64,000 bases of DNA from Dehalococcoidales bacterium (GTDB lineage Bacteria; Chloroflexota; Dehalococcoidia; Dehalococcoidales; RBG-16-60-22), in contig DAOULX010000019.1 in assembly GCA_034414775.1 (NCBI GenBank), positions 13,891 through 77,890 of the forward strand. Reading direction: 5' to 3'. How positions within the stretch are numbered: the stretch's first letter is position 1; each line of letters opens with the position of its first letter. Both the position numbers and the translations under genes were made by a program. The notes under the pieces were generated by a model. That model saw nothing but the letters and a program-made list of their open reading frames with translations. It made no database searches and was not told the DNA's origin. This document shows, one piece after another, positions 4,782 through 48,649 of the stretch.

Positions 4782-5732
4782 CTATTCTAAAGCATTGACG
4801 ATGGTGGTGGCTATATCTTTCATGAAGGTAAAGTAGGAGCCGTCGGCGGGGAGAGCGTGGGTATTGAGTTCGACCACTTTTACTCCGGTCTCGTCGGCGA
4901 TGGTACTGGCTACCGCCGGCGACGTGCCCAGCTCCGTGAATATCGCTTTAACATCATTCTCGGCAATGGCCTGCTTCAGTGCCGCCAGGTTCGCGGCGGA
5001 GACCTCCGCCTGGCTCGAGAGACCGGGCACGATCATACCTACCAGCTTGAAGCCATAGCGTTCCGCGAAATAGCCCATCGACTCGTGGCCGGTGACCAGC
5101 TTGCGGTCTTCCTGCGGGAGCACGGAAAGGATTCCGGCCACCTCAGTATTTAGAGTATCGAGGCGACTTCCCAGGTCGGCGGCCTGCGCCGAGACATCCA
5201 GGCCGAGGTCATCCGTCAGCACCGGCACCAGGGCGGCGACGATACTCTTCATGTTCGCGGGGTCAAGCCACAGGTGCGGATCGGGCGCGCCGGCTTCGTG
5301 GTGGTGTTCATCTTCGTCGTGATGGGCTTCTTCCTCGTCATGGTGGACTTCGGAGGCGACTTCCTCGGGATCAACGTGGCGGACGGTGATATAGTCCGCG
5401 GCGGTAAAGAACCTGCCCCCGTTTTCCCGGGCCGTTTCCAGGGTGTTTTCCCAGCCCTCTTCCAGTCCCAGCCCGTTCTCGATAACGAGGTCGGCCTTGT
5501 TAATGGCCTCGATATCTTTAGCGGAAGGCTCGAACTCGTGTGGGTCGAGTCCGTCGGGTATGGATACGGTAACTTCGGCCGCGTCGCCCACCAGCTCTTT
5601 GACGACAGACCCGAGTACGGAGTAGGTAGCAACGATGGTCTTCCCGGTGCCAACTGTGGTCGGCTGACAGGACAACGTCGCCAGCAGTCCCATTATAATA
5701 AAGATAACAACAAACTTGCTTTTAGCTTCCAT
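4782..5732 (-). CDS. znuA: Metal ABC transporter substrate-binding protein, zinc-type
   Basis: N-terminal signal/anchor. Long acidic His-rich loop HHDEEEAHHDEDEHHHE, as in Zn-specific ZnuA. First gene of the znuACB-like operon. Confidence 0.85.
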   Translation of the reverse strand: MEAKSKFVVIFIIMGLLATLSCQPTTVGTGKTIVATYSVLGSVVKELVGDAAEVTVSIPDGLDPHEFEPSAKDIEAINKADLVIENGLGLEEGWENTLETARENGGRFFTAADYITVRHVDPEEVASEVHHDEEEAHHDEDEHHHEAGAPDPHLWLDPANMKSIVAALVPVLTDDLGLDVSAQAADLGSRLDTLNTEVAGILSVLPQEDRKLVTGHESMGYFAERYGFKLVGMIVPGLSSQAEVSAANLAALKQAIAENDVKAIFTELGTSPAVASTIADETGVKVVELNTHALPADGSYFTFMKDIATTIVNALE

Positions 5733-5744
5733 TAGACTGTATAA

Positions 5745-5760
5745 TGATAATTGATTATCA
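5745..5760. promoter_or_regulatory. Fur/Zur-box-like palindrome
   Basis: Perfect inverted repeat TGATAAT-TG-ATTATCA, 13 nt upstream of the znuA start, in the znuA/zur divergent intergenic region. Confidence 0.6.
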
Positions 5761-5846
5761 ATAAGCTGTCAATAGGGATTGTCTAATACTTGGTACTTTT
5801 CACCGGCGTCTGATAAAATTACGGTGAAAGCCGAGAAACTGAAACC

Positions 5847-6245
5847 ATGAAAAGGACGACACCACAGCGGAATGCCATTTACCGGGTTTTGACCGGCTCG
5901 GGTAGACCGCTTTCGGTTGCTGAGATACACAAGTTGGCCAGTAGTAAATCGGCCGGCCTGGGGATAGCCACGGTCTACCGCAATTTAAAGCTCCTGCATA
6001 CGGAGGGGGAGATTGTCGCCGTGGATTTACCGGGACATCCGCCGCGTTGGGAGGTGGCGCCGGAGCGTCATCACCACCATTTTCTCTGTCTTTCCTGTGA
6101 CAAGCTTTTCGAGGTACCCGGCTGCCCGGAAGGTCTCAGGCATCTTTTACCGGAAGGCTACACCCTGGAGGAACACGATATCCTGCTGCGGGGGCGTTGT
6201 GATGTCTGCACGCGCCGTGGTGATTCTGAGACTAAGGCGAAGTAA
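5847..6245 (+). CDS. zur: Fur-family metalloregulator, probably Zur
   Basis: 132 aa. N-terminal winged-helix block (PQRNAIYRVL), HHHHF, and two CxxC pairs (CLSC, CDVC). Divergent from the zinc uptake operon. Confidence 0.8.
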   Translation: MKRTTPQRNAIYRVLTGSGRPLSVAEIHKLASSKSAGLGIATVYRNLKLLHTEGEIVAVDLPGHPPRWEVAPERHHHHFLCLSCDKLFEVPGCPEGLRHLLPEGYTLEEHDILLRGRCDVCTRRGDSETKAK

Positions 6246-6289
6246 ACTGCCTTGATTTCCCGTTATCAGCGGGGTCTCCCTTCAGAAGG

Positions 6290-7723
6290 ATGAAAAATAC
6301 CGCTAATTTCCACCGACGCACCAAGATTGTCTGTACTATCGGCCCGGCCACCGCTTCGGCAAGGGTGATCCAGCGGTTGATCAGGGCGGGTATGGATGTC
6401 GCCCGCCTGAACCTTTCGCACGGCACGCTTGACGCACACGCCGGATACATCAAGATAATCAGGAATATGAGCCGGCGCCTTGGCATGGATGTCGCCATAC
6501 TCATCGATTTACCCGGGCCCAAGTACCGCATCGGCCGGCTCAAGGACGGGCAGGTGAAGTTGAGAAAAGGCAGCCTCGTCCGTTTGACCACAGCGGATAT
6601 CGAAGGGGATGCCTCGCTGCTTCCGGTCACTTTGCCTAATCTCACTCAGGATATCCGGGTAGGGGACACCGTCATTCTGGATGACGGCGCTATGCAGCTG
6701 CGGGTATTGGAGATCGAAGGTGATGCGGTACGTTGCCGCGTGACCGTCGGTGGCTTGTTGCATCAGGGGAAAGGGCTGGTCGTCCCCGGCCGGCGTGTCT
6801 CTGTCCCGTTCATCTCGGAAAAGCTCAGGGCCGGTATCGACTTTGCCGTCAAGCAGCAGCCGGACTTCCTGGCGCTCTCCTTCGTTACCGACGCCGGAAA
6901 TATCGCCGGCGTCCGGACAATCCTCCGGGAGAAGGGCACCGAGACACCGATCATCGCCAAGATCGAGCGGGGAGAAGCGGTTAAAAACTTCGGCAGCATC
7001 CTGGCCGCCAGTGACGGCGTCATGGTGGCGCGGGGTGACCTCGGCGTGGAGCTGCCCCTGGAAAAGGTACCGCTGATACAAAAAGCCCTTATCGCTAAAT
7101 GTAACCGGGCCGGTAAACCGGTCATCACCGCCACCGAGATGCTGGAATCGATGATAAACTCGGTGCGGCCGACCCGCGCCGAGACGACCGATGTCGCCAA
7201 TGCTATCTTCGACGGTACGGATGCTATCATGCTTTCCGCCGAGACCTCGGTGGGTAACTACCCGGTACCGGCCGTCAGGATGATGTCCGGCATTGCCCGG
7301 GCCGCCGAAAAAGAGATCCCCTACGAGTGGGTCCTGGCAGAAAGGCGTTCCTGGCTGGAAAGAGAGACGGACGAACTCATCAGCTACAGTGCCTGCCAGG
7401 TAGCCAACAGCCTTAAAGCATCAGCGATAGTGGCCTTTACCCAGTCCGGCAGCACGGCTGTCCGGGTTTCGAAATACCGCCCGAATGTGCCTGTCCTGGC
7501 ATTGACGACCAGCCGGGACGTAGCGGGGAAGCTGCTGCTTTACTGGGGAGTACGGCCGCAGGTGATCGTCGAGCCGGCCTCCGTAGATGAGATGTTCGCT
7601 CTGGCGTCCCGGCTCTCCCGGAAGCTGGGGGTGGTCAAGCCGGGTGGTCTTATTGTCATCACCGCCGGTATCCCCATCGGGGAGGCGGGTACCACCAATA
7701 TGCTTAAGGTTGAGAGGGTTTAG
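6290..7723 (+). CDS. pyk: Pyruvate kinase
   Basis: RRTKIVCTIGPA, NLSHG, MVARGDLGVE, and a C-terminal regulatory domain. 477 aa. Confidence 0.95.
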   Translation: MKNTANFHRRTKIVCTIGPATASARVIQRLIRAGMDVARLNLSHGTLDAHAGYIKIIRNMSRRLGMDVAILIDLPGPKYRIGRLKDGQVKLRKGSLVRLTTADIEGDASLLPVTLPNLTQDIRVGDTVILDDGAMQLRVLEIEGDAVRCRVTVGGLLHQGKGLVVPGRRVSVPFISEKLRAGIDFAVKQQPDFLALSFVTDAGNIAGVRTILREKGTETPIIAKIERGEAVKNFGSILAASDGVMVARGDLGVELPLEKVPLIQKALIAKCNRAGKPVITATEMLESMINSVRPTRAETTDVANAIFDGTDAIMLSAETSVGNYPVPAVRMMSGIARAAEKEIPYEWVLAERRSWLERETDELISYSACQVANSLKASAIVAFTQSGSTAVRVSKYRPNVPVLALTTSRDVAGKLLLYWGVRPQVIVEPASVDEMFALASRLSRKLGVVKPGGLIVITAGIPIGEAGTTNMLKVERV

Positions 7724-16592: not shown

Positions 16593-17606
16593 TCATACCT
16601 TGCTGCCCGTAATCCCCCATAGCAGTTGACTAAACGGTTCAGGGACAATTTTCCTAAAATCAACCCATGTAAACTGTTGTAAGAATATAGGCAATTTTGG
16701 AACTTGAACACAATCTGCCAGAATTACGGGGATTACAGGACACCTTCTCCTAATGAATTCGCTGAGAAAGGCACGCGTTTCAGCATTCTGCCATGGCCCT
16801 ATACCACTTGGACCTACAAAAACCACGGCTGTTTTTATCTGACTTATTTGCTCTTCTAGTAGTTCCTGCCAGAGACGCCCCGGGGGTAATTGTTCTTCGT
16901 CAAACCATGTCACTATTCCAGCGTTCTTTAATCTGCCATTCATTTCACGTATAACGTCTCTATCTTCGCTGTTATAACTAATAAAAACATCAAATCTATC
17001 TTGCCTAGGCCTTATTTGCCAAAATTCACATATATCCATGTTACTTCGGGAGGCGTTGCTTAATTCATTCAAAACTGCCTGAATTTGCTTAAGAATCTCA
17101 GAATTCGACTTATCCCCGTATTCTTCATAATCGGCAAGGCATTCGGCGCATAATAGACCAGTTCGCATCCCTAAATCAACGCCTGTTTTATCCATCCATA
17201 GATCATTTATACATCCGGTATTGTCTTTGTGCCGGATTCCTATTCCAAGGTGCTGTAATACAACGGCACAGAGGAAAAATACAACGCCGTTATTCAATGA
17301 GAGATTCGAAAGATAATCCCATCCCCAAAAGGATATAATACTTTTGTTATCCACTCCCTCCCAGAAGTAGTTATTGTCATAAGGAATTCCAGTGAGCATG
17401 ATCGTATGGTCAGAATCAGAGCTTTCATCTAGAATTGACCGAGGTATTTTCGTATAGGTTTGCGGTGCTGAAATAAATTCGGTATTAATTTTGAAATGTG
17501 ACTTACCTCTTGCCAGGCTTAGATTTGGTGCAAGTTTCATAATATGTTCAGTAATACAAGCAAGGTCCATTCCAAGTGAACTCTCTGAATATAATGTAAT
17601 CTTCAA
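16593..17606 (-). CDS. TIR-domain protein with uncharacterised Cys/His-rich N-terminal domain
   Basis: The C-terminal ~130 aa are FDVFISYNSEDRD..VTWFDEEQL..GPWQNAETRAFL, a bacterial TIR pattern. TTG start with GGAGG 6 nt upstream. The gene is visibly AT-rich compared with its flanks. Confidence 0.85.
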   Translation of the reverse strand: MKITLYSESSLGMDLACITEHIMKLAPNLSLARGKSHFKINTEFISAPQTYTKIPRSILDESSDSDHTIMLTGIPYDNNYFWEGVDNKSIISFWGWDYLSNLSLNNGVVFFLCAVVLQHLGIGIRHKDNTGCINDLWMDKTGVDLGMRTGLLCAECLADYEEYGDKSNSEILKQIQAVLNELSNASRSNMDICEFWQIRPRQDRFDVFISYNSEDRDVIREMNGRLKNAGIVTWFDEEQLPPGRLWQELLEEQISQIKTAVVFVGPSGIGPWQNAETRAFLSEFIRRRCPVIPVILADCVQVPKLPIFLQQFTWVDFRKIVPEPFSQLLWGITGSKV

Positions 17607-20117: not shown

Positions 20118-21251
20118 ATGAAACTATCATGCCTTCAAGAAAACCTGAACCGGGGACTTAATATCGTGGGGCGGGCGGTAGCTACCAGGACAACTCTGCC
20201 CATCACGAATAACGTCCTTCTGGCGACGGACGACGGCCGCTTGAAACTGGTGGCAACCAATCTCGAAATGGCCATTAGCTGCTGGATTGGCGCCAAGATA
20301 GAGGACGAAGGGGCCATCACCGTACCGGCCCGCCTCCTCACCGAGTTCGTCAGTTCCTTGCCGAACGATAACATTGATATCAATCTTTCTCCCCAGACGA
20401 AAACCCTAGGCCTCAAGTGCGCCCGCTTCGAGGCGCGCATCAGCGGAGTAGACGCGCGAGAATTCCCGCCCATTCCGAGCGTGGAAGAAGGCATCAATAC
20501 CAGCGTAGAGGTAGAGACGTTGACCCGGGGTATCAACCAGGTGGTCTTCGCGGCGGCCACCGAGGAATCGAGGCCAGTACTCACCGGTGTCTCGACAAAG
20601 TTCGAAGGTGACAAGGTGACACTGGCGGCGGCCGATGGCTTCCGTCTGGCGGTCTTTGACCTGCCCCTGGCCGAGCCGGTCGAATCGACGACGGAGGTTA
20701 TCATACCGGCCCGGACTCTCTCCGAGCTGAATCGTCTCGTGGCTGACCAGGAAGAACCGGTCCTCATTACTCTCAATCCCAATAAGAGCCAGGCGCTTTT
20801 CCGTTTGAAGAACATCGAGCTTGTATCACAGCTGGTACAGGGGTCTTTCCCCAACTACTCGCAGCTCATCCCGCAGAGCTATAATACCCGGGTGATTGTG
20901 AGTGTCGATGATTTTCTACGGGCCACCCGAACGGCGTCGATATTCGCCCGTGACGGTAGCGGCATCGTGCGGCTGGTGATTAGTCCCGGCAGTGAGGCCG
21001 GCCCCGGAAAAATCTCAGTGTCCGCCCGCTCCGAGGAGATTGGCGAAGACACCGGCGAGATCGATGCAACAGTCGAAGGCGACGAAGCCAAGATTGCCTT
21101 TAACGGCAAATACCTCAATGATGTCCTCAGCGTCCTGCGCGAGTCACAGGTGGCGCTGGAGACCACCAATCCATCCAGCCCCGGCCTGATCCGCCCCGTC
21201 GGCACCGACAATTACACCCATGTCGTCATGCCGATGTTTGTCCAGTGGTGA
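20118..21251 (+). CDS. dnaN: DNA polymerase III beta sliding clamp
   Basis: 377 aa with the three-domain clamp pattern (LPITNNVLL, ATDGFRLA-like AADGFRLAV, C-terminal MPMFVQW). Confidence 0.92.
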   Translation: MKLSCLQENLNRGLNIVGRAVATRTTLPITNNVLLATDDGRLKLVATNLEMAISCWIGAKIEDEGAITVPARLLTEFVSSLPNDNIDINLSPQTKTLGLKCARFEARISGVDAREFPPIPSVEEGINTSVEVETLTRGINQVVFAAATEESRPVLTGVSTKFEGDKVTLAAADGFRLAVFDLPLAEPVESTTEVIIPARTLSELNRLVADQEEPVLITLNPNKSQALFRLKNIELVSQLVQGSFPNYSQLIPQSYNTRVIVSVDDFLRATRTASIFARDGSGIVRLVISPGSEAGPGKISVSARSEEIGEDTGEIDATVEGDEAKIAFNGKYLNDVLSVLRESQVALETTNPSSPGLIRPVGTDNYTHVVMPMFVQW

Positions 21252-21255
21252 GTAG
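21228..21255 (+). repeat. Direct repeat copy 1 (last 7 codons plus stop of dnaN)
   Basis: ATGCCGATGTTTGTCCAGTGGTGAGTAG is identical to 22899-22926. Confidence 0.95.
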
Positions 21256-21413
21256 TATATTTAGTTTATGCACACTTTAAACGGCAATCCTACGCACGTT
21301 GGTATAGTCATGCTAGAGAATACGTGGGATGTCCCGCTTTTTTATGGGTTATTGGCGCTGATTCTGAGGTGAAAGGGTAGGCTGTAATCAGTCTGGGTCA
21401 GTCGTAATGTGCC

Positions 21414-22664
21414 CTATCTAGCAATATGCACCTTGCGCCTGACGAGGAATATACCTCCCGCCATAACAATTATGGTGAGGGCAATCCAGGGCACTATTAT
21501 AGCGACTTTGTTAACCGGATAAACATCTCCCCCTACAACCACGGGTTCAGATGGAGGTGGCGTACCCAGTAAGAGGTAGGTCTGACCGGTATAATTATCG
21601 CCATCGACTTCATTCTCATCTCCATAAGCACCGATGAGGAAGTCGTCGCCGCCGTCACCGTTGACATCCCCGGCCGTGCTAACTGACCAGCCAGAATAAT
21701 CATTACCATCCTCACCTAAGAATGAAGCATCGGCATCCGATAGGCTGGTGTCCATCACCCAGCCATCAGCCTTCCCCAGGATGAGATAGGTTTGACCGGC
21801 ACCACTACCACCATCTTCATCCGCATAAGCACCGATGAGGAAGTCATCGTAGCCATCAGCGTCGACATCGCCGGCCGCGGCGACTGAACGACCAGAACGA
21901 TCGCTGGCATCTTCACCTAGGAATGAGGCGTCGGCAGTCGACAGGTCGTATTCCATGCCCCAGTCGGCGGCCTGCCGCCCCAGGATGAGATAGGTCTGAC
22001 CGGCTGTACTACCACCGTCTTCATCCCCAAAAGCACCGATAAGGAAGTCATCGCAGCCGTCACTATTAACATCCCCGGCCGTGGCTACCGAATAACTGGA
22101 ATAGTCGTAGCTATCCTCACCCAAGAACGAGGCGTCGGCAGTCGACAGAGGGGTATCCAACCCCCAGCCATCAGCCTTCCCCAGGATGAGATAGGTTTTA
22201 CCGGCATAACTACCGATGCCTTCTTCATACCCATAAGCACCGATGAGGAAGTCATCGTAGTCATCACCATTGACATTCCCGGCCGCGGCTACCGAATAAC
22301 CAGAATAGTCGTAGCTATATTCACCCAAGAATGAGGCGTCGGCAGTAGACAGGTCGTATTCTATGCCCCAGTCGGTGGCCTGCCGCCCCAGAATGAGATA
22401 GGTCTGACCGGCATATGTATAGCTTTCATCATTACCATGAGCACCGATGAGGAAGTCGTCCCGGCCGTCACCGTTGACGTCCCCGGCTGTTGATACCGAG
22501 TAACCAGCATTGTCGTTGCCATCCTCGCCCCAGAACGAGGCGTCGGCAGTTGACAGGCTGGTATCCGGGTCAAAGGCGTAGACAGTGCCCGCCAGGGCAA
22601 AAACGGATACTAGTATCAGAGATAATACGAGTAGAAGAGGGGAAAGCCATCTTAATGTCTTCAT
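21414..22664 (-). CDS. FG-GAP (integrin-alpha-like) repeat protein with signal peptide and C-terminal TM anchor
   Basis: Signal peptide ending VYA. Five ~68-aa repeats (LSTADASFLGE..YSV..AGDVNGDG.DDFLIGA...AGQTYLILG). C-terminal hydrophobic helix followed by RRKVHIAR. Confidence 0.85.
   Translation of the reverse strand: MKTLRWLSPLLLVLSLILVSVFALAGTVYAFDPDTSLSTADASFWGEDGNDNAGYSVSTAGDVNGDGRDDFLIGAHGNDESYTYAGQTYLILGRQATDWGIEYDLSTADASFLGEYSYDYSGYSVAAAGNVNGDDYDDFLIGAYGYEEGIGSYAGKTYLILGKADGWGLDTPLSTADASFLGEDSYDYSSYSVATAGDVNSDGCDDFLIGAFGDEDGGSTAGQTYLILGRQAADWGMEYDLSTADASFLGEDASDRSGRSVAAAGDVDADGYDDFLIGAYADEDGGSGAGQTYLILGKADGWVMDTSLSDADASFLGEDGNDYSGWSVSTAGDVNGDGGDDFLIGAYGDENEVDGDNYTGQTYLLLGTPPPSEPVVVGGDVYPVNKVAIIVPWIALTIIVMAGGIFLVRRKVHIAR
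21561..22574 (-). repeat. Five tandem coding repeats (~200 nt each) inside the FG-GAP gene
   Basis: Repeat units alternate between two subtypes, one ending GRQA.DWG.EY and the other ending GKADGW..DT. Confidence 0.8.
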
Positions 22665-22898
22665 GTCCTTTCTCCTTCGTGATTAAAAATAAAACAATAA
22701 CCTATTATATTTATACTTTTAAACGGTAATATTTTGGATGCCGTGCATCAACCACCCAATGGACTATTTCGATATTATGATTACGCTTATCAGCATGTTC
22801 AATAGGAGGATACTATTAGCTAATAGAAAGTATCTAGGCGATTGAATCCGGGAGAACTGACCTTTCCCATGCTGAAACATACGCATGGAAAGGCAAAT

Positions 22899-22926
22899 AT
22901 GCCGATGTTTGTCCAGTGGTGAGTAG
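22899..22926 (+). repeat. Direct repeat copy 2 (orphan copy of the dnaN 3' end)
   Basis: Identical 28-mer to 21228-21255. Preceded by the hairpin CCTTTCCCATGC..GCATGGAAAGG (22861-22894). Confidence 0.95.
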
Positions 22927-23276: not shown

Positions 23277-23837
23277 ATGGAAATCTCGGCAGTGCGTAAA
23301 AGCACCAAGCTAATCATCGATGGGGTACTTTACAACACCGAAGAAGTCGAGTTCATGAAACCCGGCAAGGGGCGCTCGGTCTACCGCCTCAAGCTGAAGA
23401 ACCTGCGCGATGGCAACACCATCGAGCGTACCTATCGCTCCGGCGAGAAGGTCGAAGACGCCCAGCTGAACACTCAGGACGCGCAATACCTCTACCGCGA
23501 GGGCGACCACTTCGTCTTCATGAACTCCGAGACGTTCGAACAGCTTTTGATATCCGAGGATATGATAGGAGAAAAAGTCGGCTATCTCAAAGAAGGAACG
23601 ATGGTCGTGCTGCTGATGATGGGCGACGAGCCGATTGACGTTACCCTACCGACCACCGTCGAACTCGAAGTGGTGGAGACGGAAATCTCGACCAAGACGG
23701 CCACCATTACAGCCCAGTCCAAGTCCTCGGTCATGGAGACCGGCATCAAGGTGGATACCCCCTCTTTCATCAAGGAAGGCGATATCATCAAAGTAGATAC
23801 CCGCGCCGGCACCTACGTGGAGCGGGTATCCAGATAG
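23277..23837 (+). CDS. efp: Elongation factor P
   Basis: 186 aa. Contains the KPGKG loop with the modifiable Lys (EFMKPGKGRS). Confidence 0.93.
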   Translation: MEISAVRKSTKLIIDGVLYNTEEVEFMKPGKGRSVYRLKLKNLRDGNTIERTYRSGEKVEDAQLNTQDAQYLYREGDHFVFMNSETFEQLLISEDMIGEKVGYLKEGTMVVLLMMGDEPIDVTLPTTVELEVVETEISTKTATITAQSKSSVMETGIKVDTPSFIKEGDIIKVDTRAGTYVERVSR

Positions 23838-33375: not shown

Positions 33376-34920
33376 TTAATGCCGGAAGTGCCTGACCCCG
33401 GTCAGGACCATGGCGATATCGTGCTTGTCCGCGGCGTCGATGGACTCCTGGTCGCGGATGGAGCCGCCGGGCTGGATGATGGCCGTCACGCCTATCTTGG
33501 CGGCATGCTCGACGACGTCCGGGAAGGGGAACATGGCGTCCGAGGCCAGGACGCTGCCCCTGGCTTTGTCGCCGGCCTTCTCCCCGGCTATCTGGGCGCT
33601 GACAATGCGGCTGGGCTGCCCTGCCCCCATCCCCACCACCGTCTTGTCCCTGGCGAGCATGATGGCGTTGGACTTAACGTGTTTGGCGGCGTGCCAGGCG
33701 AAGAGCAGGTCGTCTTTTTCCTTGGCCGTCGGCGGGCGTTTGGTGACCACTTTGAGGTCGACCTTGCCCTCCGGCAAGGAGTCCGAGCCCTGGACCAGGA
33801 AGCCGCCTTTAACGTGGCGGTAGTCGGTGTAGTCGCACTCTTCTTTGCCGTAGCCGGGCGGCAGTTCCGCCACCAGGATGCGGAGGTCCCTTTTCTTCTT
33901 GAGCATCTCCAGGGCCTTGGGGTCATACTCGGGGGCGATGACAATCTCGTAAAACACCGGTTTCATCGCCTCGGCCATGGCCGGGGTGACGGGGCGGTTG
34001 GCCGCCACGATGCCGCCGAAGGCCGCCACCTCGTCACCGCTGAAAGCCTGCCGGTAAGCCTCGGCGATGTCTTCGTGACTGGCCAGGCCACAGGGATTGG
34101 TGTGCTTGATGACGGAAACGGTCGGGGCGGCGAAATCGACGGCGGCGCCCCAGGCGGCGTCCGCGTCCAGGATGTTGTTGAAGGAAAGCTCCTTACCATG
34201 CAGCACCTTGGCCCAGGTGATGCCAGTATTAGGCTTCGGGTCGATGGAAAGCTCGGCGTAGAAAGCGGCTGTCTGGTGGGGGTTCTCCCCGTAGCGCAGG
34301 CCGTAGCGTTTCTTCATGGCGATGGTTAACTCCTCGGGAAGGCCGGGCTCGCCCCGGCGCAGGTACTGGGCAATGGCGGTATCGTAGATGGCCGTGTGCT
34401 GGAAGGCCTTCTGCGCCAGCCGCTGGCGTTCTTCGAGGGGCAAATCGCCTTTCTGGAGCTTCTCCAGCACGACCGGGTAATCGGCCGGGTCCACGACGAC
34501 GATAACGCCGGGGAAGTTCTTGGCTGAGGCGCGAATCATCGTGGGTCCGCCGATGTCGATGTTCTCCAGGGCGTCGGTAAGGGTAACGCCGTCTTCAGTG
34601 ACCGTCTGCACGAAGGGATAAAGATTGACCGCCACCAGGTCTATCTTCTCGATGTGCTTTTCGGCCAGCTCATCCATGTGGGCGGGCAGGTCGCGGCGGG
34701 CGAGGATGCCGCCGTGGACCATCGGGTGCAGGGTCTTGACCCGCCCGTCGAGGATTTCCGGGAAACCGGTGATGTCCGAGACGCTTTTAACGGGCACCCC
34801 GGCCTCACCGATGGCCTTTTTGGTGTTGCCGGTGCTGAAAATCTCGTAGCCGAGCTGGCTCAGGCCGCGGGCGAAATCGGCGACGCCGGTTTTATCCGAA
34901 ACGCTAACGATGGCTCTCAT
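33376..34920 (-). CDS. purH: Bifunctional AICAR transformylase / IMP cyclohydrolase
   Basis: 514 aa. MRAIVSVSDKTG, KTLHPMVHGGIL, and a C-terminal RHFRH. Confidence 0.95.
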   Translation of the reverse strand: MRAIVSVSDKTGVADFARGLSQLGYEIFSTGNTKKAIGEAGVPVKSVSDITGFPEILDGRVKTLHPMVHGGILARRDLPAHMDELAEKHIEKIDLVAVNLYPFVQTVTEDGVTLTDALENIDIGGPTMIRASAKNFPGVIVVVDPADYPVVLEKLQKGDLPLEERQRLAQKAFQHTAIYDTAIAQYLRRGEPGLPEELTIAMKKRYGLRYGENPHQTAAFYAELSIDPKPNTGITWAKVLHGKELSFNNILDADAAWGAAVDFAAPTVSVIKHTNPCGLASHEDIAEAYRQAFSGDEVAAFGGIVAANRPVTPAMAEAMKPVFYEIVIAPEYDPKALEMLKKKRDLRILVAELPPGYGKEECDYTDYRHVKGGFLVQGSDSLPEGKVDLKVVTKRPPTAKEKDDLLFAWHAAKHVKSNAIMLARDKTVVGMGAGQPSRIVSAQIAGEKAGDKARGSVLASDAMFPFPDVVEHAAKIGVTAIIQPGGSIRDQESIDAADKHDIAMVLTGVRHFRH

Positions 34921-34921
34921 A

Positions 34922-35452
34922 TTACTCTTTCCTTTTGCTTTTTTGTTGCAATAGCCTGTATATTCCCAGAAAAAAGTTCGTCCTGGGCACCTTTTGCATA
35001 TAACTTCGATAGTCGGCGCCGAACTTCTTGATAAGTTTTTTGTCTTCCTCGATACAACCCAGATAAATAACCGTGACGCCAGCAGCCCCGAGTATGCCGA
35101 ACAACCAGTGCGGATTCGCTAACAGATTGGTCAGGAAAATTGCGTATATGCCACCGGTATATTGCGGGTGCCTGACGATGGAGTATATGCCCGTGTCCAC
35201 CAGTCGCGTGGTGTTGACATACGATTTTCCTTTTGAGACCCCGCCCCGCCGGGGGAACATGACTATCGGCGCCATGACCAGGATCATACCCACCACCCAG
35301 ACGACCCAGGCGATAATAGCCAGGGGCAGGTATGATTCCACCTTAATAACTCCGGTTAGGACCAAGGGATTGACAGGGAAACAGGCGATAGCCAGAACGG
35401 TCATAAGAGCGCTCCAGAGTATGTCCCCTTTGCTCATTTTCCAGGTTGCCAA
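34922..35452 (-). CDS. Isoprenylcysteine carboxyl methyltransferase (ICMT)-family membrane methyltransferase
   Basis: 4-5 TM helices. GIYSIVRHPQYTGG motif. Confidence 0.75.
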   Translation of the reverse strand: MATWKMSKGDILWSALMTVLAIACFPVNPLVLTGVIKVESYLPLAIIAWVVWVVGMILVMAPIVMFPRRGGVSKGKSYVNTTRLVDTGIYSIVRHPQYTGGIYAIFLTNLLANPHWLFGILGAAGVTVIYLGCIEEDKKLIKKFGADYRSYMQKVPRTNFFLGIYRLLQQKSKRKE

Positions 35453-35464
35453 TCCCCCTCCTCC

Positions 35465-36472
35465 CTAGTCAATGATCACCCTCTCGTCCCCTACCTGCCG
35501 CACCACCTCCCCGATGACCATGATCTCCGGCAGTTTAGCCTGAAGCTCGCTGACGCTCTCCGGGGCGGTGACTACCACCATGCCGACGCCCATGTTGAAA
35601 ACGTGATACATCTCGTCGCGGGCCACGCCGCCGAGCCGCTCTAGCAGTGGAAAGATTGGCGGCACTGGCCATTTCGCAGTCTCGAAGCGGGCCGCCAGGC
35701 CCTCCGGCAGGATGCGCGGCACGTTGTCGATTAGCCCGCCGCCGGTAATGTGCGCCATCCCTTCGACGAGTGGCAGTAGCGGTCTCAGCTCATTGTAGTA
35801 GCAGCGGTGCGGCTTCAGGAGCATCTCCCCAATAGGCCGGTCCAGCTCCGGGTAGCGCTTTTCCAGCGCTTCGCGGGTGTCCCCGAAGACCTTCCGGGCC
35901 AGCGTGTAGCCGTTGGTATGCAGCCCGCTGGAAGGCAGTCCGAGGATGGCGTCTCCGGCGGCGATCCCTTTTCCGGCGATTATCTCGTCTTTCTCCACCA
36001 CCCCGACGACGAATCCAGCCAGGTCGAAGTCGTCGCCCGTATAGATGTCGGCCATCTCGGCGGTTTCCCCGCCGATCAGCGCGCAGTCGACCTCCCGGCA
36101 GGCCGCCGCCAGTCCGCCAACGATGGCCTCCGCCCTTTCCGGTACGAGCTTCCCGATGCCGATATAGTCCAGAAAGAACATCGGGCTGGCGCCGCAGGTG
36201 AAGATATCGTTGACGCAATGGTTGACGATGTCGATGCCGACCGTGTCGTAACGGTCCAGGGCGATGGCCAGCTTGATCTTCGTACCTACCGAATCGGTGC
36301 TGGAAACGAGAACGGGCTGGCGGTAGCCCCTGAACTCGTACATGCCGGAGAAAAAGCCGGCGTCGCTTAATACCTCGGGGCGGTAAGTTGTGCTGGCGAC
36401 TTTTCCGATCAGGCGGTTGGAGATGTTTTTAGCGTTGATGTCAACGCCGGCCCGGGCGTAGGCGTCGGTCAT
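35465..36472 (-). CDS. purM: Phosphoribosylformylglycinamidine cyclo-ligase (AIR synthetase)
   Basis: 335 aa. YARAGVDI, DSVGTK and GGETAEM blocks. Confidence 0.95.
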   Translation of the reverse strand: MTDAYARAGVDINAKNISNRLIGKVASTTYRPEVLSDAGFFSGMYEFRGYRQPVLVSSTDSVGTKIKLAIALDRYDTVGIDIVNHCVNDIFTCGASPMFFLDYIGIGKLVPERAEAIVGGLAAACREVDCALIGGETAEMADIYTGDDFDLAGFVVGVVEKDEIIAGKGIAAGDAILGLPSSGLHTNGYTLARKVFGDTREALEKRYPELDRPIGEMLLKPHRCYYNELRPLLPLVEGMAHITGGGLIDNVPRILPEGLAARFETAKWPVPPIFPLLERLGGVARDEMYHVFNMGVGMVVVTAPESVSELQAKLPEIMVIGEVVRQVGDERVIID

Positions 36473-41659: not shown

Positions 41660-42601
41660 TCATTTCCCGAGGCTGTCGTAAATACTCCGCAGCCCGTCTT
41701 CAAGATTGAACTCCGGATTATATCCGAATTCCCGGGCCCGGGATATGTCCGCCAGGCTATATAAGATATCACCGGGGCGGGGGTCTTCGTATTTCGGGCT
41801 CAGGTCCCGGCCGGATAGACTTATGACAAGCTGGGCGAGCTCATTGATGGTAACGCTCTCCCCCCGGCCGATATTATAGATGCCCGAGGCTGTTCCCTCT
41901 GCGGCCAGGATATTGGCAACTGCGACATCCTTGACAAAGGTGAAGTCCCTCGTCTGTGTGCCATCCCCGTAGATAACCGGCGCTTCGCCGGAGCCGGTCC
42001 GCTGGATGAAGCTGGGGATGACGGCGGCGTACTGAGAACTGGGGTCTTGCCTCGGCCCGTACACGTTGAAATACCTCAGGCTGGCGGTAGGTAGGGAGTA
42101 GACCTGCTCGAAAACCCCGCAGTAGTATTCCCCGGCGACTTTGGAAACGGCGTAGGGAGACTGCGGACTGGGTGACATGTCCTCACGTTTGGGCAGGGTG
42201 GGGGTATCTCCATAGACGGACGATGATGAGGAATACACGACCTTACTGACGCCGGCATCTCGGGCCGCCATGAGCACCTTAAGCGTGCCGGTGCCGTTGA
42301 TTTCGTGTGAAGCCAGGGGTTCCTGGATACTCCTCGGTACGCTGGGCAGGGCCGCCAGATGAAAAACGAAACGCGCCCCCCGGAATACATTATTCAGGGA
42401 AGGCAGGTCGGTGATGCTCCCCCGATGAAACTCGACATCCTGGTTTTCTAAGAGCACCTCGATGTTAGCCATGGATCCTGTTGAAAGATCATCGAAAATG
42501 ACGACCCTGTAACCGCGTTCAGTAAGCTCCTCAGCCACATGAGACCCGATAAAACCGGCCCCGCCGGTAACGACCGCTTTATCCATCCGGCTCCTTTTCA
42601 A
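41660..42601 (-). CDS. NAD-dependent sugar-nucleotide epimerase/dehydratase (extended SDR)
   Basis: GGAGFIGSH Rossmann motif and YxxxK (YAVSK). Confidence 0.85.
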   Translation of the reverse strand: MKRSRMDKAVVTGGAGFIGSHVAEELTERGYRVVIFDDLSTGSMANIEVLLENQDVEFHRGSITDLPSLNNVFRGARFVFHLAALPSVPRSIQEPLASHEINGTGTLKVLMAARDAGVSKVVYSSSSSVYGDTPTLPKREDMSPSPQSPYAVSKVAGEYYCGVFEQVYSLPTASLRYFNVYGPRQDPSSQYAAVIPSFIQRTGSGEAPVIYGDGTQTRDFTFVKDVAVANILAAEGTASGIYNIGRGESVTINELAQLVISLSGRDLSPKYEDPRPGDILYSLADISRAREFGYNPEFNLEDGLRSIYDSLGK

Positions 42602-42753
42602 GTATCTGGCTCGGTGTAAACGACCGGATTATTATACCCGCAACCAGAAAGCAATAACAAGGCTCGCGAATGTTCCAGAGTATGGCTAGCAAGGCAATAG
42701 TCTGATGACACTCCCGGCTTGATATCAATGACCTGAAGAGGATTACCCTCGCC

Positions 42754-43965
42754 TTATGAAGATAAATTTTGTGCCGCTGTTCGTTCCAAGACTTCGTTGA
42801 GTCGGTCCGCCAGCTTTGCCCAGGAATGTTCGGTGACCATTAGATGCCTCGCCGCCACACCGATTCGTTCCCGGAGACGTTTGTCATTGAGGAGAGCAAT
42901 GACCCTATCGGCGAACTCAGCCGGTCTTTCGGCAATGATGATATTTTCCTCCGGGGAAACATCGATCCCGGTGGTTACCGGTGGCGTAGCCACGACCGGC
43001 CGTCCGGTGGCCATGGCCTGCAATATCCTGACCTTAACGCCGAAGCCCTCCTGTAGCGGGGCTGCCACTACCCAGGCACGGCGAAGGTACGGGCGCAGAT
43101 CGGGGACATAACCGGTAACAGTCACCGAGGCGTCCTCCGCCAGCGCCTTTATCTCCGTATCTGGATTGCTGCCTACAACTTGTAGTTGAATCCTCGGAAT
43201 CCTTTCCTTTATCAGCGAGTATATTTCACGGTAAAATTCCATCACCGCGGCTGTGTTCCGGGGACCGCTCATCGAACCGGTGATAATCAATGTCGGCGAC
43301 TCTGCCTCCATATCATCGGCCTCGAAAAAGCCATCATCAACGCCGTAGGGTATTACTACGAAGTTCAGACTCGAGTCGTGTGCTCTTACCATATCCCGCT
43401 GGTGTGATGAAACGGCAATCAAGAGATTTACCCGGTGGTAGAGCCTGGCATAGCCCCGCGTTTGCCGGTGGTAAACGTAGCGCAAAATCTTCTTCAGCGG
43501 ATTCTTTTCTAGCCGATACTCTAGATGGCTTATCTCGGCCGGGGCGAAGGCTTCCAGTAGTACCACCGGGATGCCCTTATCCAGCACGTAACCCAGCATG
43601 GCCGGATGGTCAACGGCGATGATATCATAGCCTGCACCATGCAAAAGGGCATTTACCCGGGTATCCATCTCCGAGGAGTAGCCATAACGTGTGAAAGCGG
43701 GCAGCCCGGAGGACATATTCAATATTCGCGGGATGCTTTTCAGGATCACCCCCGGGGCCCCGAAGCCGGGTCGGCGGGCTAACTCCACCGTTTCCACACG
43801 GGCGTGCTGGCTCAGGTCCGGGTAGCTTTTACCCCGCAGCTTAAACGCCGCCAGGGTAACTTGGTGGCCGTGTTTCCCGGCAAGGTGTTCTAGCGAGTAA
43901 CGCACCCGGTGGCTGCCGGCTATCTCCGGGGCGGGGTGTTCGTAGCAGAGAAAGAGAATTTTCAT
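42754..43965 (-). CDS. Glycosyltransferase, GT4-like (GT-B fold)
   Basis: C-terminal EGFGVKVRILQAMATGRPVVATP block. Confidence 0.8.
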   Translation of the reverse strand: MKILFLCYEHPAPEIAGSHRVRYSLEHLAGKHGHQVTLAAFKLRGKSYPDLSQHARVETVELARRPGFGAPGVILKSIPRILNMSSGLPAFTRYGYSSEMDTRVNALLHGAGYDIIAVDHPAMLGYVLDKGIPVVLLEAFAPAEISHLEYRLEKNPLKKILRYVYHRQTRGYARLYHRVNLLIAVSSHQRDMVRAHDSSLNFVVIPYGVDDGFFEADDMEAESPTLIITGSMSGPRNTAAVMEFYREIYSLIKERIPRIQLQVVGSNPDTEIKALAEDASVTVTGYVPDLRPYLRRAWVVAAPLQEGFGVKVRILQAMATGRPVVATPPVTTGIDVSPEENIIIAERPAEFADRVIALLNDKRLRERIGVAARHLMVTEHSWAKLADRLNEVLERTAAQNLSS

Positions 43966-43967
43966 GT

Positions 43968-45071
43968 CTATGCACCGTACGCAATCAATCGACTGTATAA
44001 CTTAATCAACTTCGCGGAGTTGTCTTCCAAAGCTATTCCATCAAGGATTTGCCGGTGCTGCTCGTAGTTCTGTAATACGTCCTTCACCTGGCGTGTCAGG
44101 TCATCGATGTCCCGGTTCTTAAAGATAGTCGCCCCTTCCGGTCGGGGGCAAACGTCACTGGCTACCGAGGGTACCTTGAAAAACAATGCCTCGCGGAGTG
44201 AGTTGGCATCACCATCAGTGTTGGTGGGCCTGATAAAGACCTGGCTTTTCATCAGGATAGGGTAGAGTTGATAGGCACCGGTGATGAATTTGAAATTGCT
44301 TTCCAGCCCCATTTCTGCGATACGTTGCCTCATCACATCGAAATATTTTTTATCGCCAACCTGGGGCAGGGAAAAAACCATGCCCAATCCGGGGTAACTG
44401 GACTTCAGGTTGGCACAGAGCTCGACACAAAGGTCCAGTCCGTAGAGGTCCTGGCCCCGATAAAATGTTAGGGCATAGGCATTCGCCGAGATTATCGGCT
44501 GGTGGCTATCAATGAACTCCCATACGTCCGGTGGTATAGCGTCGAATTCATCCTTCCGCACGGGGGGCGGAATAAAGTTCGGGATGATGGTAATACGCTC
44601 CGGCGCGACCCCCAGCGACAGGCAAAGCTCCCTAATGATCTCATTGTGGGCGATTACAGCGTTGTAGCGCCTCAGTGAAGAGGCGATGATTTTGCGGCGG
44701 AGCCATCGATTTTCCAGGGAGTCCTGGAGGCTTTGCCCGCCGATGGAGATTAGCGTTCGTTTTCCCAGTAGGCCTATTGTCCCCACCGCCACCCGCACCC
44801 GCCAGTCGATGTAATGGCAACAGATCAGGTCCTCTTTGGCCGTAAAAAGGTATCGAAGCAACCACCAGGCCCTATTTCCAATGCGAGCCACAGCGCCGTT
44901 CCGATGGACTACTCTTCTATTTACCAGGTCGTAGACCACGTATTCAAGATCGGTTTCATCTATCCGCTGAACCAGCCGTTGTAAGGGTACGGTGAATCCA
45001 CCGAAGGGCGGTGGCAGCGCCCCCAGAAAAGCTATAACCGGCTTCTTTCCGGCCTTAGACATCGGCATCAT
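43968..45071 (-). CDS. Glycosyltransferase, GT-B fold
   Basis: C-terminal GDANSLREALFFKVPSVAS (E-x7-E-like) block. Confidence 0.7.
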   Translation of the reverse strand: MMPMSKAGKKPVIAFLGALPPPFGGFTVPLQRLVQRIDETDLEYVVYDLVNRRVVHRNGAVARIGNRAWWLLRYLFTAKEDLICCHYIDWRVRVAVGTIGLLGKRTLISIGGQSLQDSLENRWLRRKIIASSLRRYNAVIAHNEIIRELCLSLGVAPERITIIPNFIPPPVRKDEFDAIPPDVWEFIDSHQPIISANAYALTFYRGQDLYGLDLCVELCANLKSSYPGLGMVFSLPQVGDKKYFDVMRQRIAEMGLESNFKFITGAYQLYPILMKSQVFIRPTNTDGDANSLREALFFKVPSVASDVCPRPEGATIFKNRDIDDLTRQVKDVLQNYEQHRQILDGIALEDNSAKLIKLYSRLIAYGA

Positions 45072-46428
45072 CCGCCAGACTGACGGGAAGTTTCTGGATC
45101 AAGAAGTTATATTTTCCTCGAGCTGTGCGGGGGATTTCCTCCACGAAACGTATCTCCAGTTTCATATCATCGCCCAGTTTTTTAAGCAGTTCCGCCCTGA
45201 TGTAATCCGTATCCCCATCGGTATAGCTGTCCTTCCTGACGATTTTGAAGACGACCTCCCCCTTTTTCTCCTGGTAGAACTGGAACTGGGCCACGTTCTC
45301 GAAGACGTCCGAGTGCATGTTGATGGCCGTGATGGAAATGGGCCGGTTGTTCGTGGCGACGATAAACTCTTGGAGCCAGCGGCCCCGCACGCCCTTGATG
45401 CGGGGGTACTGCCGGCGGCAGTGGCAGTCGCCGTCGGCCCACATGGCCAGGTCGTCAGTCCGGTACCGGATGAACGGCATAGCTAAGCTGGTAAGCGCCG
45501 TTCCCACGATGTTGCCGGCCTCGTCGGCGTTGGCAACCGGGCTGCCGTCCTCCCGGACGAGCTCGGTAATGCCATATTCGGGGAAGAGGTGGTACTCCCG
45601 GTTCGTCTCGCACTCACCGGCCAGCACCGCCCTTTCGGCGTGGCCGTACCAGGTATAGACGCGGCATTTCAGGGCTTCTTCCAGGAGCTCGCGCTGGCCG
45701 GGATACATGTTTTCCGAGCCGCAAAGGACCGCCCGCAGGCCGTTAAAAGCCGCGGTACCGTTCTTTTTCATGAAACGCGCCACTATCGATACCGTCGAAG
45801 GATAGGCCTGGATAAAGCGTGGTCGGAACCGTCGTATCTCTTCAATATAGCGGGGAATGTTGTCATTCGCCAGATGGTAAGTCGACAGCACCAGCCAGCG
45901 GTCGAAGAGCGTTTTTTCCCAAAGCCGGCCCGCCTCGGCGCCGGCTACGACGCTACCCTTGAGAACGGCGCACCTGTCACGGAAATGATAGCCGACACGC
46001 TCCCAGAGCATCTTGATGAAGGCCCATTCCGTTGCCCGCGATACCGCTTTCTCATAGTAAAATCCGAGGGGAACGCCCGTAGAGCCGCCGGTAGTAACGT
46101 ACTCCAGCCTGGCGGGGGAATAGTTGCTGGATATCAGGTCTTTCAGGTTAGTGCGGACCAGGTCACGGGTCAGGAAGGGCAGCTTTTTAAGGTCGTTGAA
46201 GTCCTGGATGTGCCCCGGTTTGAGGCCGCGTTCGTCAAAGACACGGCGGTAGTAGGGGACGCTAGTATAGGCATGCTCCAGCAAGCGGCCCAACTGCCGC
46301 ATCTGGTACTCCTCGAGCTGTTGCCGGCTCCACCACTGCGATTTTTTTAAAAGGTTATAGGTCTTCAAGAAAGCCGGTAGCGCCGGCAGCAGGCCGACCG
46401 CTTTCTGCGTTACCGATGCTTCTTTCAC
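45055..46428 (-). CDS. Adenylate-forming enzyme of the phenylacetate-CoA ligase / CapK / F390-synthetase family
   Basis: TTGGSTGVPL AMP-binding motif and a C-terminal RTARGKYNF. 17-nt overlap with the downstream GT gene. Confidence 0.8.
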   Translation of the reverse strand: MKEASVTQKAVGLLPALPAFLKTYNLLKKSQWWSRQQLEEYQMRQLGRLLEHAYTSVPYYRRVFDERGLKPGHIQDFNDLKKLPFLTRDLVRTNLKDLISSNYSPARLEYVTTGGSTGVPLGFYYEKAVSRATEWAFIKMLWERVGYHFRDRCAVLKGSVVAGAEAGRLWEKTLFDRWLVLSTYHLANDNIPRYIEEIRRFRPRFIQAYPSTVSIVARFMKKNGTAAFNGLRAVLCGSENMYPGQRELLEEALKCRVYTWYGHAERAVLAGECETNREYHLFPEYGITELVREDGSPVANADEAGNIVGTALTSLAMPFIRYRTDDLAMWADGDCHCRRQYPRIKGVRGRWLQEFIVATNNRPISITAINMHSDVFENVAQFQFYQEKKGEVVFKIVRKDSYTDGDTDYIRAELLKKLGDDMKLEIRFVEEIPRTARGKYNFLIQKLPVSLADDADV

Positions 46429-46440
46429 CGCACTTTCAGG

Positions 46441-47502
46441 CTAGCCGACCTGGTATTTCTCCTTCATCCGGGCCACCACCATCTCCAAAGCACGGGTCGT
46501 CTCCCGGCCCTCCTCGGCTGTAATCGGCGGTTCGCGGCCGGTAATCACGCTATCAACAAAGGCACCGATGATTTTATTGTGACCGAAAAACTCACCCCTC
46601 CTGGTGATTACGTTGAGTGTATTTCCTCCCACCCCGCCGGCTGTACGGGCAGCCCCTCCCAGGGCGGCTGAAGCCAGCGAAACAGGGCTCATCTTCCGGT
46701 TCTTACCTTCCCGCACCAGCAACATGCCGAGCAGATCCAGATGCAGGGCTCCATCCGTCCCCAAAAGGTCGAGAGTCGAGGCGCGCCTGTGGCTGCTGTA
46801 GGAGATGACGATAGAGCTGTAGCCTTGCTCGCCTTCGAGGTCGATGCGGAACTCGTCGAAGGGGGCCCAGGGGTGCTCCAGGCGGCGCGTCGCAAAGACA
46901 TCGGCGCCTTTGATATTGCCGATAAAGGCGATGGACTTGTACACCGGGTGTGGCCCCGTCTCCCCGATGACGCCTCCGGGGAGCTTGTGTATCCAGTAGT
47001 CCTCCCTCATGATCATCTCATCCTGGGGATCGGACATGAAGATACGCATGCCAATGAAGTCCCCGATTACTCCCTTCGCCACCAGTTGCCTGGCTTTAAC
47101 AACCGGGGGATAAAAAAGCTGGTTGTGGACGATGCACAGCTTACGTCCACTTTTATCGGCGGCGGCTATCATGGCGTCGCAGTCCGAGGTCTTGAGGGCC
47201 ATGGGCTTTTCCAGGATGACATGGCAACCCGCTTCCAATGCCTCGATGGCCAGGGAGGCGTGGACCTGCGGGGGCGTGCAGATATCGATGATGTCCGGCT
47301 TCTCCGCTTCGAGCAGGGGCGCCAGGTCGTTATAGACGCCCGGAATGCTGTTCTTCGCCGCCGTTTCGGCGGCGAGTGTTTCGTTCTTATCACAGACGGC
47401 CCGGAGGGCGGCTTTGCCTTTTAGTCTCAGAAAAGCCGGGATGTGGCGTATGGTGGCGATGGCTCCGCAGCCGACTATACCAACCTTCAACAGGTCTGCC
47501 AT
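46441..47502 (-). CDS. Gfo/Idh/MocA-family oxidoreductase
   Basis: N-terminal VGIVGCGAIATIRHIPA Rossmann motif and an EKPMA block. Confidence 0.85.
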   Translation of the reverse strand: MADLLKVGIVGCGAIATIRHIPAFLRLKGKAALRAVCDKNETLAAETAAKNSIPGVYNDLAPLLEAEKPDIIDICTPPQVHASLAIEALEAGCHVILEKPMALKTSDCDAMIAAADKSGRKLCIVHNQLFYPPVVKARQLVAKGVIGDFIGMRIFMSDPQDEMIMREDYWIHKLPGGVIGETGPHPVYKSIAFIGNIKGADVFATRRLEHPWAPFDEFRIDLEGEQGYSSIVISYSSHRRASTLDLLGTDGALHLDLLGMLLVREGKNRKMSPVSLASAALGGAARTAGGVGGNTLNVITRRGEFFGHNKIIGAFVDSVITGREPPITAEEGRETTRALEMVVARMKEKYQVG

Positions 47503-47517
47503 GATGCCTCCCCGGGC

Positions 47518-48516: not shown

Positions 48517-48567
48517 GATTCGCCCCTGAGCCTGTTAAGTTTCACACCCGCGAGGAGGGTTTACCCG

Positions 48568-48576
48568 ATTATAACA
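48568..48576 (-). promoter_or_regulatory. Extended -10 element TGTTATAAT (internal promoter of the glycan cluster)
   Basis: The minus strand reads TGTTATAAT, ~50 nt upstream of the SDR start at 48516. A TTGGCC sits 18 nt upstream. Confidence 0.4.
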
Positions 48577-48649
48577 CTGTAGTTGCCTTGAGGCCAAGTG
48601 ACCGAATGCTAAATGGCACAAAAAAATCCCAATAAAATGACTCAAAGGC

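Follow-up and report, generated by a model that had tools for sequence, protein, structure and literature searches.

Our findings point to the last codons of dnaN as an integration site for mobile elements in Dehalococcoidia, and to a small insertion behind this gene in one Dehalococcoidales bacterium as a derivative of such an element that lacks its recombinase. The window, by which we mean the entire stretch of 64,000 nt that was analyzed (GCA_034414775.1, contig DAOULX010000019.1, positions 13,891 to 77,890 of the forward strand), holds an exact 28-bp direct repeat of the dnaN end that brackets an insert of 1.67 kb. We interpret the two 28-mers as the attL and attR sites of an integration into the dnaN 3' end catalyzed by a large serine recombinase (LSR), and the window copy as a non-autonomous derivative of the L055 type, a reading to which we give a probability of roughly 0.8. 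Here L-numbers are our labels for the related dnaN loci and contigs that were compared, and P arm and P' denote the left and right halves of the element attP. From comparison of these loci we infer that an LSR family targets the dnaN 3' end throughout Dehalococcoidia.

The window has two exact plus-strand copies of the 28-mer ATGCCGATGTTTGTCCAGTGGTGAGTAG and no more, one at 21228-21255 and the other at 22899-22926; in 100 shuffled sequences the 28-mer is absent even when three mismatches are allowed. Copy 1 comprises the last seven codons of a full-length dnaN, the stop codon and GTAG; the identity of the copies breaks at both edges (c/t on the left, t/c on the right), and with two mismatches allowed the match extends to 31/33. 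These results bear out an earlier note on this DNA, which had described the repeat at the dnaN end and a single minus-strand cargo gene for an FG-GAP protein between its copies. The cargo protein has 416 aa with a signal peptide-like N-terminus, five FG-GAP repeats and a C-terminal hydrophobic anchor; it is the one credible gene of the insert, the remaining ORFs being nested antisense frames. The AT-rich flanks of that note were recovered on the right side (GC 0.37-0.43), whereas the left flank is only mildly AT-rich (0.48-0.51), compared with about 0.55-0.60 nearby. The closest database relatives of the FG-GAP protein are 66-71% identical at most, and the one full-length homologue inspected (P0097) stands in an unrelated context.

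The insert is without recombination or transfer genes, and we found in it neither a transposase nor terminal inverted repeats. The earlier statement that no integrase is present holds well beyond the insert, as no LSR gene or fragment was detected across the 64-kb window, including beside either copy, by tblastn with three LSRs (E ≤ 10) or by nhmmer with a profile built from 28 LSR 3' ends. Annotation of 14-27 kb, 41-64 kb and ten further ORFs of the window brought up no other recombinase, and no tRNA or tmRNA gene lies in the window. The sole LSR trace is a 30-codon tail frame at 22834-22926. The features of the locus, by position, are:

20118-21251, plus strand: dnaN (DNA polymerase III beta clamp), the target gene, 377 aa with three DNA_pol3_beta domains (PF00712, PF02767, PF02768).
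21228-21255, plus strand: putative attL, exact copy 1, with the dnaN-side arm (ATG), the presumed crossover CC (21231-21232) and the element-borne P' through GTAG.
21256-21413, no strand: left non-coding flank of the insert, with a terminator-like hairpin and T-run and without an LSR remnant.
21274-21288, plus strand: left copy of an inner imperfect repeat (partner 22715-22730; 13 nt, one mismatch).
21324-21337, plus strand: the terminator-like hairpin and T-run (terminator scan, consensus match only), which may end dnaN transcripts.
21414-22664, minus strand: cargo gene for a secreted or membrane-anchored FG-GAP repeat protein (PF01839 five times, E 2.6e-30).
22774-22802, minus strand: promoter-like -35/-10 pair upstream of the cargo gene (TTGAAC-17-CATAAT, 9/12; consensus match only).
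22834-22926, minus strand: orphan 3' end of an LSR frame, LTTGQTSAYLPFHAYVSAWERSVLPDSIA-stop, from frame analysis over 29 junctions; an LSR encoded on the excised circle would have this tail.
22861-22894, plus strand: hairpin whose 3' arm is the conserved P arm and whose 5' arm is not conserved.
22877-22898, plus strand: P arm of family A, ATACGCATGGAAAGGCAAATAT, with the same motif left of second copies in six relatives.
22899-22926, plus strand: putative attR, exact copy 2, with the P arm junction, CC (22902-22903) and the displaced original dnaN end.
23277-23837, plus strand: efp, the first gene past the insert and outside the element (EFP_N, EFP, Elong-fact-P_C).

The comparison set consisted of 80 loci from metagenome-assembled genomes (MAGs) of Dehalococcoidales and Dehalococcoidia, retrieved with the window dnaN protein at 77-87% amino acid identity. 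The upstream moaC-dnaN synteny is kept in almost all of these relatives, and the DNA 3' of dnaN is variable across the group. Clustering of the ORFs downstream of dnaN gave one dominant family, encoded on the minus strand directly after dnaN, and this family is an LSR, with Resolvase, Recombinase and Zn_ribbon_recom domains each above the Pfam cut-off and with the SPbeta integrase YokA and the TP901-1 integrase as best PDB relatives. The LSR ORF runs across the junction and has its end antisense to the last dnaN codons, as in L055 (LSR 5198-6859, minus strand, against a dnaN end at 5349) and L050 (7109-8596, minus strand, against 7134). Full-length LSRs are present in L018, L050, L055 and L063, and LSR 3' remnants abut dnaN in L015, L017, L044, L053, L065 and L077. 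A database search with the L055 LSR led to Dehalococcoides mccartyi, with a cluster of 52 proteins that are 73% identical to the query; WP_011929270 is an L055-type LSR of this species. In D. mccartyi CP179927.3 (L128, 1087774-1105288) and three other assemblies (L129-L131), dnaN and the gene for a 504-aa LSR converge, with an overlap of 26 nt. In CP179927.3 a second dnaN-end copy lies 8.9 kb away and is followed by a 71-aa LSR fragment; a ParE-toxin gene adjoins the LSR, and an insertion sequence (IS; rve) lies inside the 8.9-kb element. The reverse-strand LSR overlapping attL, present in L050, L055, L121 and D. mccartyi L128, is absent in the window.

Both ends of the window insert can be matched to one subfamily of these recombinases. 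An exact scan of metagenomes for the 28-mer returned 43 contigs, in 39 of which it ends a dnaN with heavy synonymous divergence in the codons before the 28-mer, and in about 35 of the 43 the LSR 3' end follows directly, with an antisense C-terminus reading ...DKKDAYTYLDLKVKATPEGADIKGYLDPSVIKSDSC-LLTTGQTSA. These contigs hold about ten more full-length LSRs, most LSR ORFs there being truncated. Since the 28-mer, including its non-coding GTAG, stands beside L055-type LSRs, the window 28-mer corresponds to the element-borne half-site P' of the L055 subfamily. At the other end, the 22 nt left of copy 2 (ATACGCATGGAAAGGCAAATAT) have their counterpart in the same position in L011, L015, L038, L057, L065 and L068, and this family-A P arm accompanies remnants of L055-type LSRs in L015, L065 and L044. 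Read in the LSR frame, family-A arms encode ...TSGCLPFHAY(I/V)..stop, with synonymous DNA differences among loci, and the window keeps TSAYLPFHAYVSAWERSVLPDSIA-stop, including the tail motif LPFHAY; other P-arm families encode conserved tails of their own, such as CLILLxY...KESLxIxP. Next to the core the window P arm reads CAAAT, compared with the common CAAAC or CAGAC. Both ends are thus homologous to the att arms of a cognate element at a site in use in 21 genomes, 43 metagenome contigs and D. mccartyi. As both L055-type arms are kept and no recombinase gene accompanies them, the window insert is non-autonomous, which agrees with the earlier suggestion of a decayed or non-autonomous island or a cassette mobilized in trans. 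A frame right of copy 2, KRCPKAYRRYK, bears a faint likeness to the frameshifted LSR end of L099; as an LSR end it was unsupported by the profile search.

The same arrangement recurs among the relatives with different contents. All loci were scanned with a degenerate dnaN-end motif, ATGCCNATGTTYRTNCARTGGTRR, at up to three mismatches, a motif without a match in 819 kb of shuffled sequence. Extra copies of the dnaN end bound cassettes in 21 related genomes, all in direct orientation and 0.46-5.4 kb downstream, sometimes with two extra copies; a lone weak inverted match lies upstream of dnaN in L017. Between such copies lie 25 cassettes, which measure 0.44-5.35 kb and mostly have one to three ORFs; six of the cassettes keep LSR fragments and about 15 are without any LSR remnant. 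The cargo is unrelated among genomes and includes radical SAM, cupin, CetZ-type tubulin, metallophosphoesterase, beta-lactamase-fold hydrolase, NYN/OST-HTH, GT2 glycosyltransferase and SDR proteins, together with several proteins without a Pfam match. Sizeable examples of the last group, from one- and two-gene cassettes, are found at L038 7325-9496, L065 8077-9171, L059 5397-6572 and L041 2415-3764, and by their low GC (0.33-0.41) and island location these are candidates for defense or other accessory functions.

Arrays on metagenome contigs hold up to four dnaN-end copies (L121, L125). In L121 (838-8776), which has four direct copies, dnaN is followed by a full LSR element of 4.8 kb, next by a cassette that retains an LSR remnant, and last by a single catalase cassette. 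In L041, L044, L053 and L054, only wobble positions distinguish the second copy from the end of the local dnaN, which indicates that these second copies are independently derived gene ends and not recent duplicates. In a comparison of an occupied with an empty locus (L054 against L052), homology resumes 23 nt past the second copy, and L041 has about 2.2 kb between dnaN and the gene that directly follows dnaN in L036 and L058. With the adjacent LSRs, the direct copies in 21 genomes and the match of both attP arms, these occupied and empty pairs uphold the earlier proposal of site-specific integration into the dnaN 3' end. In L061 (4577-4640 and 6066-6140) the duplication continues for about 50 nt beyond the dnaN stop and takes in the downstream terminator hairpin, so the shared arm in some cassettes is much longer than 24-28 nt. 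Ten of the 80 MAG contigs break off no more than 40 nt from the dnaN stop (L004, L009, L020, L040, L045, L047, L051, L064, L067 and L072), several of them inside the repeat at a wobble position, which suggests strain-level heterogeneity in presence and absence that disrupts assembly.

The crossover position, the order of events and any present-day mobility are what we infer from these junctions. The element circle would carry an attP whose right half copies the last codons of dnaN, the stop and a few more bases, and whose left half, the P arm, would sit within the 3' end of the LSR gene. Crossover would most likely take place at the invariant CC of a Pro codon, in the center of the palindrome ACAT-NCCN-ATGT; the arm/core junction of attP has the palindrome (C)AAACAT-CCCG-ATGTTTG, with a weaker counterpart, GTCAT-GCCG-ATGTT, in dnaN. 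Most second copies begin with ATC as opposed to ATG in dnaN, in keeping with a crossover at the CC or to its right. The 23 nt from the CC through GTAG are close to the half-site length expected from the attP of 40-50 bp given for LSRs in the literature consulted. After integration, dnaN would be completed by element DNA (attL) and its original end displaced to the far side behind the P arm (attR); in the window, the last ~20 nt of dnaN were probably supplied by the inserted element. The predicted empty attB is ...CCCATGTCGTC-28mer-CTTATAACGCC..., and the attP of the predicted circle is ...GGAAAGGCAAAT-28mer-TATATTTAGTT.... Since the right halves of attB and attP would coincide, attL would be nearly an attB and attR nearly an attP. 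An attL of this kind would admit further insertions, and such serial insertion beside dnaN, with the newest element next to the gene, would explain the tandem arrays. On the same grounds, excision may need no directionality factor.

This arrangement has a potential consequence for the enzyme itself. The attP appears to lie inside the 3' end of the LSR gene, and the circular and integrated forms of the LSR would then differ in their C-terminus. The stop of most integrated LSR copies (...LTTGQTSA-stop) is made by the antisense of dnaN GTC-ATG, and the swap of C-termini upon integration may act as a built-in switch.

Several points weigh against the LSR interpretation of the window insert. The public data searched contained neither an empty dnaN-efp site nor a circular junction nor another copy of the FG-GAP cassette: exact look-ups of the dnaN, FG-GAP and efp proteins returned two contigs only, both occupied, none of the 43 metagenome contigs with the 28-mer came from the window lineage, and viral contigs gave nothing for the 25-mer or the LSR. 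The empty dnaN-efp interval for which the earlier note had looked to related genomes did not materialize, as efp lies within 6 kb of dnaN in none of the 80 relatives, and the pre-insertion state of the window lineage is therefore not given by them. With no LSR remnant by either copy, an origin by deletion requires that the break fell exactly where the half-site ends. Canonical LSR recombination leaves right halves that are not copies of each other, and their 23/23 identity in the window calls for the extra assumption of an earlier visit by the same family or of gene conversion. Moreover, the putative crossover position is read from symmetry and the ATG/ATC pattern alone, and the absence of a cognate LSR is a result for the 64-kb window. 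Under an LSR mechanism the 28/28 identity of the copies is no sign of recency because the two right halves differ in origin; it is better explained by strong conservation of the arm, possibly with an earlier visit of the same element family.

Within the LSR interpretation there are two options for the window insert, namely a remnant left by deletion from a full element and a minimal cassette in need of an LSR in trans. The best surviving rival takes the latter option further and proposes a functioning non-autonomous cassette, made of a P' arm, one gene with its own promoter and a P arm, that is moved by the LSR of another element, a serine-recombinase analogue of an integron array. We regard this as a tentative possibility at about one chance in a few. 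It would account for the intactness of both window arms relative to the family consensus, for the clean boundaries of the ~15 of 25 relatives' cassettes without an LSR remnant, which would be hard to obtain by random deletion, and for the recurrence of single-gene units such as the catalase in L121 and CetZ in L028. The cassette shared by L041 and L061 is also more alike (87.6% nt) than their dnaN genes (82.2%), and the resemblance of attL to attB and of attR to attP means that excision might dispense with a directionality factor, as is reported for excision by CcrAB. Against this, no identical cassette was found in two places or two hosts and no circular junction in the public data searched, the window is without an LSR and its P arm departs from CAAAC/CAGAC to CAAAT beside the core, and the LSR remnants in six cassettes show that decay occurs. 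The broader proposal that the dnaN 3' end is a cassette-capture platform run by LSRs in trans, with arrays growing on the dnaN-proximal side, without a directionality factor and possibly with the C-terminal tail switch, we consider unlikely, and somewhat more so than a working cassette in the window.

A duplication made without any site-specific recombinase, through illegitimate or short-homology recombination or through uptake of foreign DNA carrying a dnaN end, is improbable. There is no recombinase in or near the insert, and the L061 duplication, extending into the terminator, shows that longer homologous arms exist; such an origin would nevertheless leave unexplained the conserved P arm with its LSR tail-coding remnant beside copy 2, the exact match of the 28-mer to an LSR-linked arm, and the repeated occurrence of these boundaries at over 40 loci beside LSR genes.

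We give still less credence to an integron-type cassette, to an island of a tyrosine recombinase or to a transposon that duplicated its target site. There is a superficial likeness to attC-bounded cassettes, in that the arrays consist of short units, often of one gene, that have a structured sequence at one end. However, the site yielded neither a tyrosine recombinase, such as an IntI-like enzyme, nor a transposase, either in the window or among the relatives examined, and the recombinase found there was always an LSR. The insert has neither the transposase nor the terminal inverted repeats of a transposon or IS, and the 28-bp duplication is always the same sequence across genomes and far exceeds known target-site duplications. 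The structured end itself, a hairpin abutting copy 2 (22861-22894) that the earlier note had pointed out, is real in the window (as DNA, dG -8.7 kcal/mol, z = -3.0, with 1 of 200 shuffles folding as well) but is not conserved, as six homologous P arms of other genomes showed no significant folding (z +1.7 to -1.2).

Least likely of all is an assembly artefact by misjoin or collapsed repeat, a doubt raised at the outset and suggested by the several MAG contigs that break at the dnaN end: the dnaN-FG-GAP-efp order, with the exact proteins, is also found on contigs of GCA_964393175.1, a second assembly that is broken elsewhere, so the arrangement is not an artefact of one contig, and structures of the same kind occur in complete chromosomes assembled from long reads (L006, L010 and D. 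mccartyi CP179927.3).

Other sequence features near the junctions were considered and set aside. With the six homologous arms unfolded and only its 3' arm conserved, the hairpin is ruled out as a conserved recombination structure. The inner direct repeat of the earlier note exists, TTTAAACGGCAAT / TTTAAACGGTAAT, but is marginal as a functional part: it is equalled in 6 of 300 (2%) Markov-1 random flank pairs and has no counterpart in any related locus. It is probably due to chance, and we rejected it as a cassette boundary. The P arm sequence AAACATACGCAT forms a 10/12 inverted repeat with ATGCCGATGTTT at the start of copy 2, 12 nt apart (22875-22910); a site center at this dyad would fall outside the shared block, which the junctions do not allow, and family-A arms do not clearly conserve the dyad.

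Elsewhere in the window, a 337-aa protein with a C-terminal TIR_2 domain is encoded 2.5 kb upstream of dnaN (16593-17606, minus strand), between genes for Ham1-like and metallo-beta-lactamase-fold proteins, and is a possible defense or signaling gene. The genes purH and purM follow dnaN on the same strand in L052, L054, L056, L059, L066 and L068. The window has the two genes in the opposite orientation, 12-15 kb downstream of dnaN (33376-36472, minus strand), and has no purF. The window lineage has undergone rearrangement behind dnaN, and an inversion of purM/purH with a breakpoint at the att site was rejected on account of the lack of an inverted att remnant and the absence of purF and the neighboring hydrolase gene from the window. 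A large polysaccharide/glycan cluster at 41660-53582 includes several GT1/GT4 glycosyltransferases, epimerases and a CapK-like ligase, and adjoins an 844-aa STT3/AglB-type oligosaccharyltransferase, an unusual enzyme in a bacterium.

As an island remnant the window locus is modest and ordinary; the pattern of the family, with a new target gene, arrays, an attP that appears to lie in the integrase gene and a presence in D. mccartyi, is of more interest. The last codons of dnaN would be a recurrent, lineage-wide landing site for LSR elements in Dehalococcoidia, including the bioremediation organism D. mccartyi, and this would explain the frequent breaks of MAG contigs at dnaN in this class. The site would also be a hotspot at which accessory genes enter streamlined genomes, among them surface proteins, catalase, the tubulin-like CetZ and candidate defense genes. 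It would supply natural attB/attP pairs that share a whole half-site for a set of LSRs with possible use as genome-engineering tools, and a cassette-capture platform, if true, would be a functional analogue of the integron built on an unrelated enzyme. In a literature search of incomplete coverage we found no report of dnaN as a serine-recombinase target or attB in Dehalococcoides.

Several known systems share parts of this architecture. Phage-like LSR integrations, such as A118 in comK, SPbeta in spsM and skin in sigK, split the target gene, and their attP and attB share few bases. The enzyme family is the same as that of the dnaN LSRs and the att sites are likewise short, whereas the dnaN end is regenerated and not split, and a whole half-site (~23 nt) is shared. 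The CIMEs of Streptococcus ICESt-type elements are bounded by attL and attR, arise by decay and persist in tandem (accretion) at the fda 3' end through tyrosine integrases. The window insert, att-bounded and without recombination or transfer genes, follows the same concept, though with a different target and an LSR that is unrelated to the tyrosine integrase. In staphylococci, SCC elements insert at the 3' end of rlmH (orfX) by means of the LSRs CcrAB or CcrC, and recombinase-less psi-SCC elements are bounded by the same repeats. The dnaN elements resemble these in their insertion at the 3' end of a conserved single-copy gene, the repeats that keep this gene intact, the tandem arrays and the recombinase-less units; they differ in phylum, target and cargo, and SCC has a CcrA and CcrB pair (or CcrC) and a recombinase gene that is internal and does not span attP.

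By architecture, the closest described system is the ssrA-GI family of genomic islands in Dehalococcoides. Its serine recombinase DsiB is encoded on the reverse strand by attL (~500-540 aa), with an ORF that runs into the target 3' end, an overlap at ssrA that was noted without resolution; the islands have a 20-bp repeat of the target end and a conserved motif upstream of distal repeats, form tandems that include integrase-less islands read as cis-mobilizable elements, and were likened to SCCmec at rlmH (McMurdie et al. 2011, PMC3146451). The target of the dnaN family is a protein-coding gene and not that of tmRNA, and many of its units are single-gene cassettes of 0.4-2 kb compared with islands of 10-30 kb. 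It also has no DsiA-like second small serine recombinase beside the LSR in L055 and L050, where the neighboring ORFs (DUF4357/RAMA in L055, no Pfam match in L050) are without a Resolvase domain; the D. mccartyi LSR has ParE-toxin and unknown genes as neighbors. The likeness extends to a ~700-aa protein of the full L050 element with a weak, sub-threshold match to a primase-type CHC2 zinc finger, and the two families share the class of organism, the placement of the LSR, the repeat that regenerates the target end, the distal motif, and both tandem and integrase-less islands.

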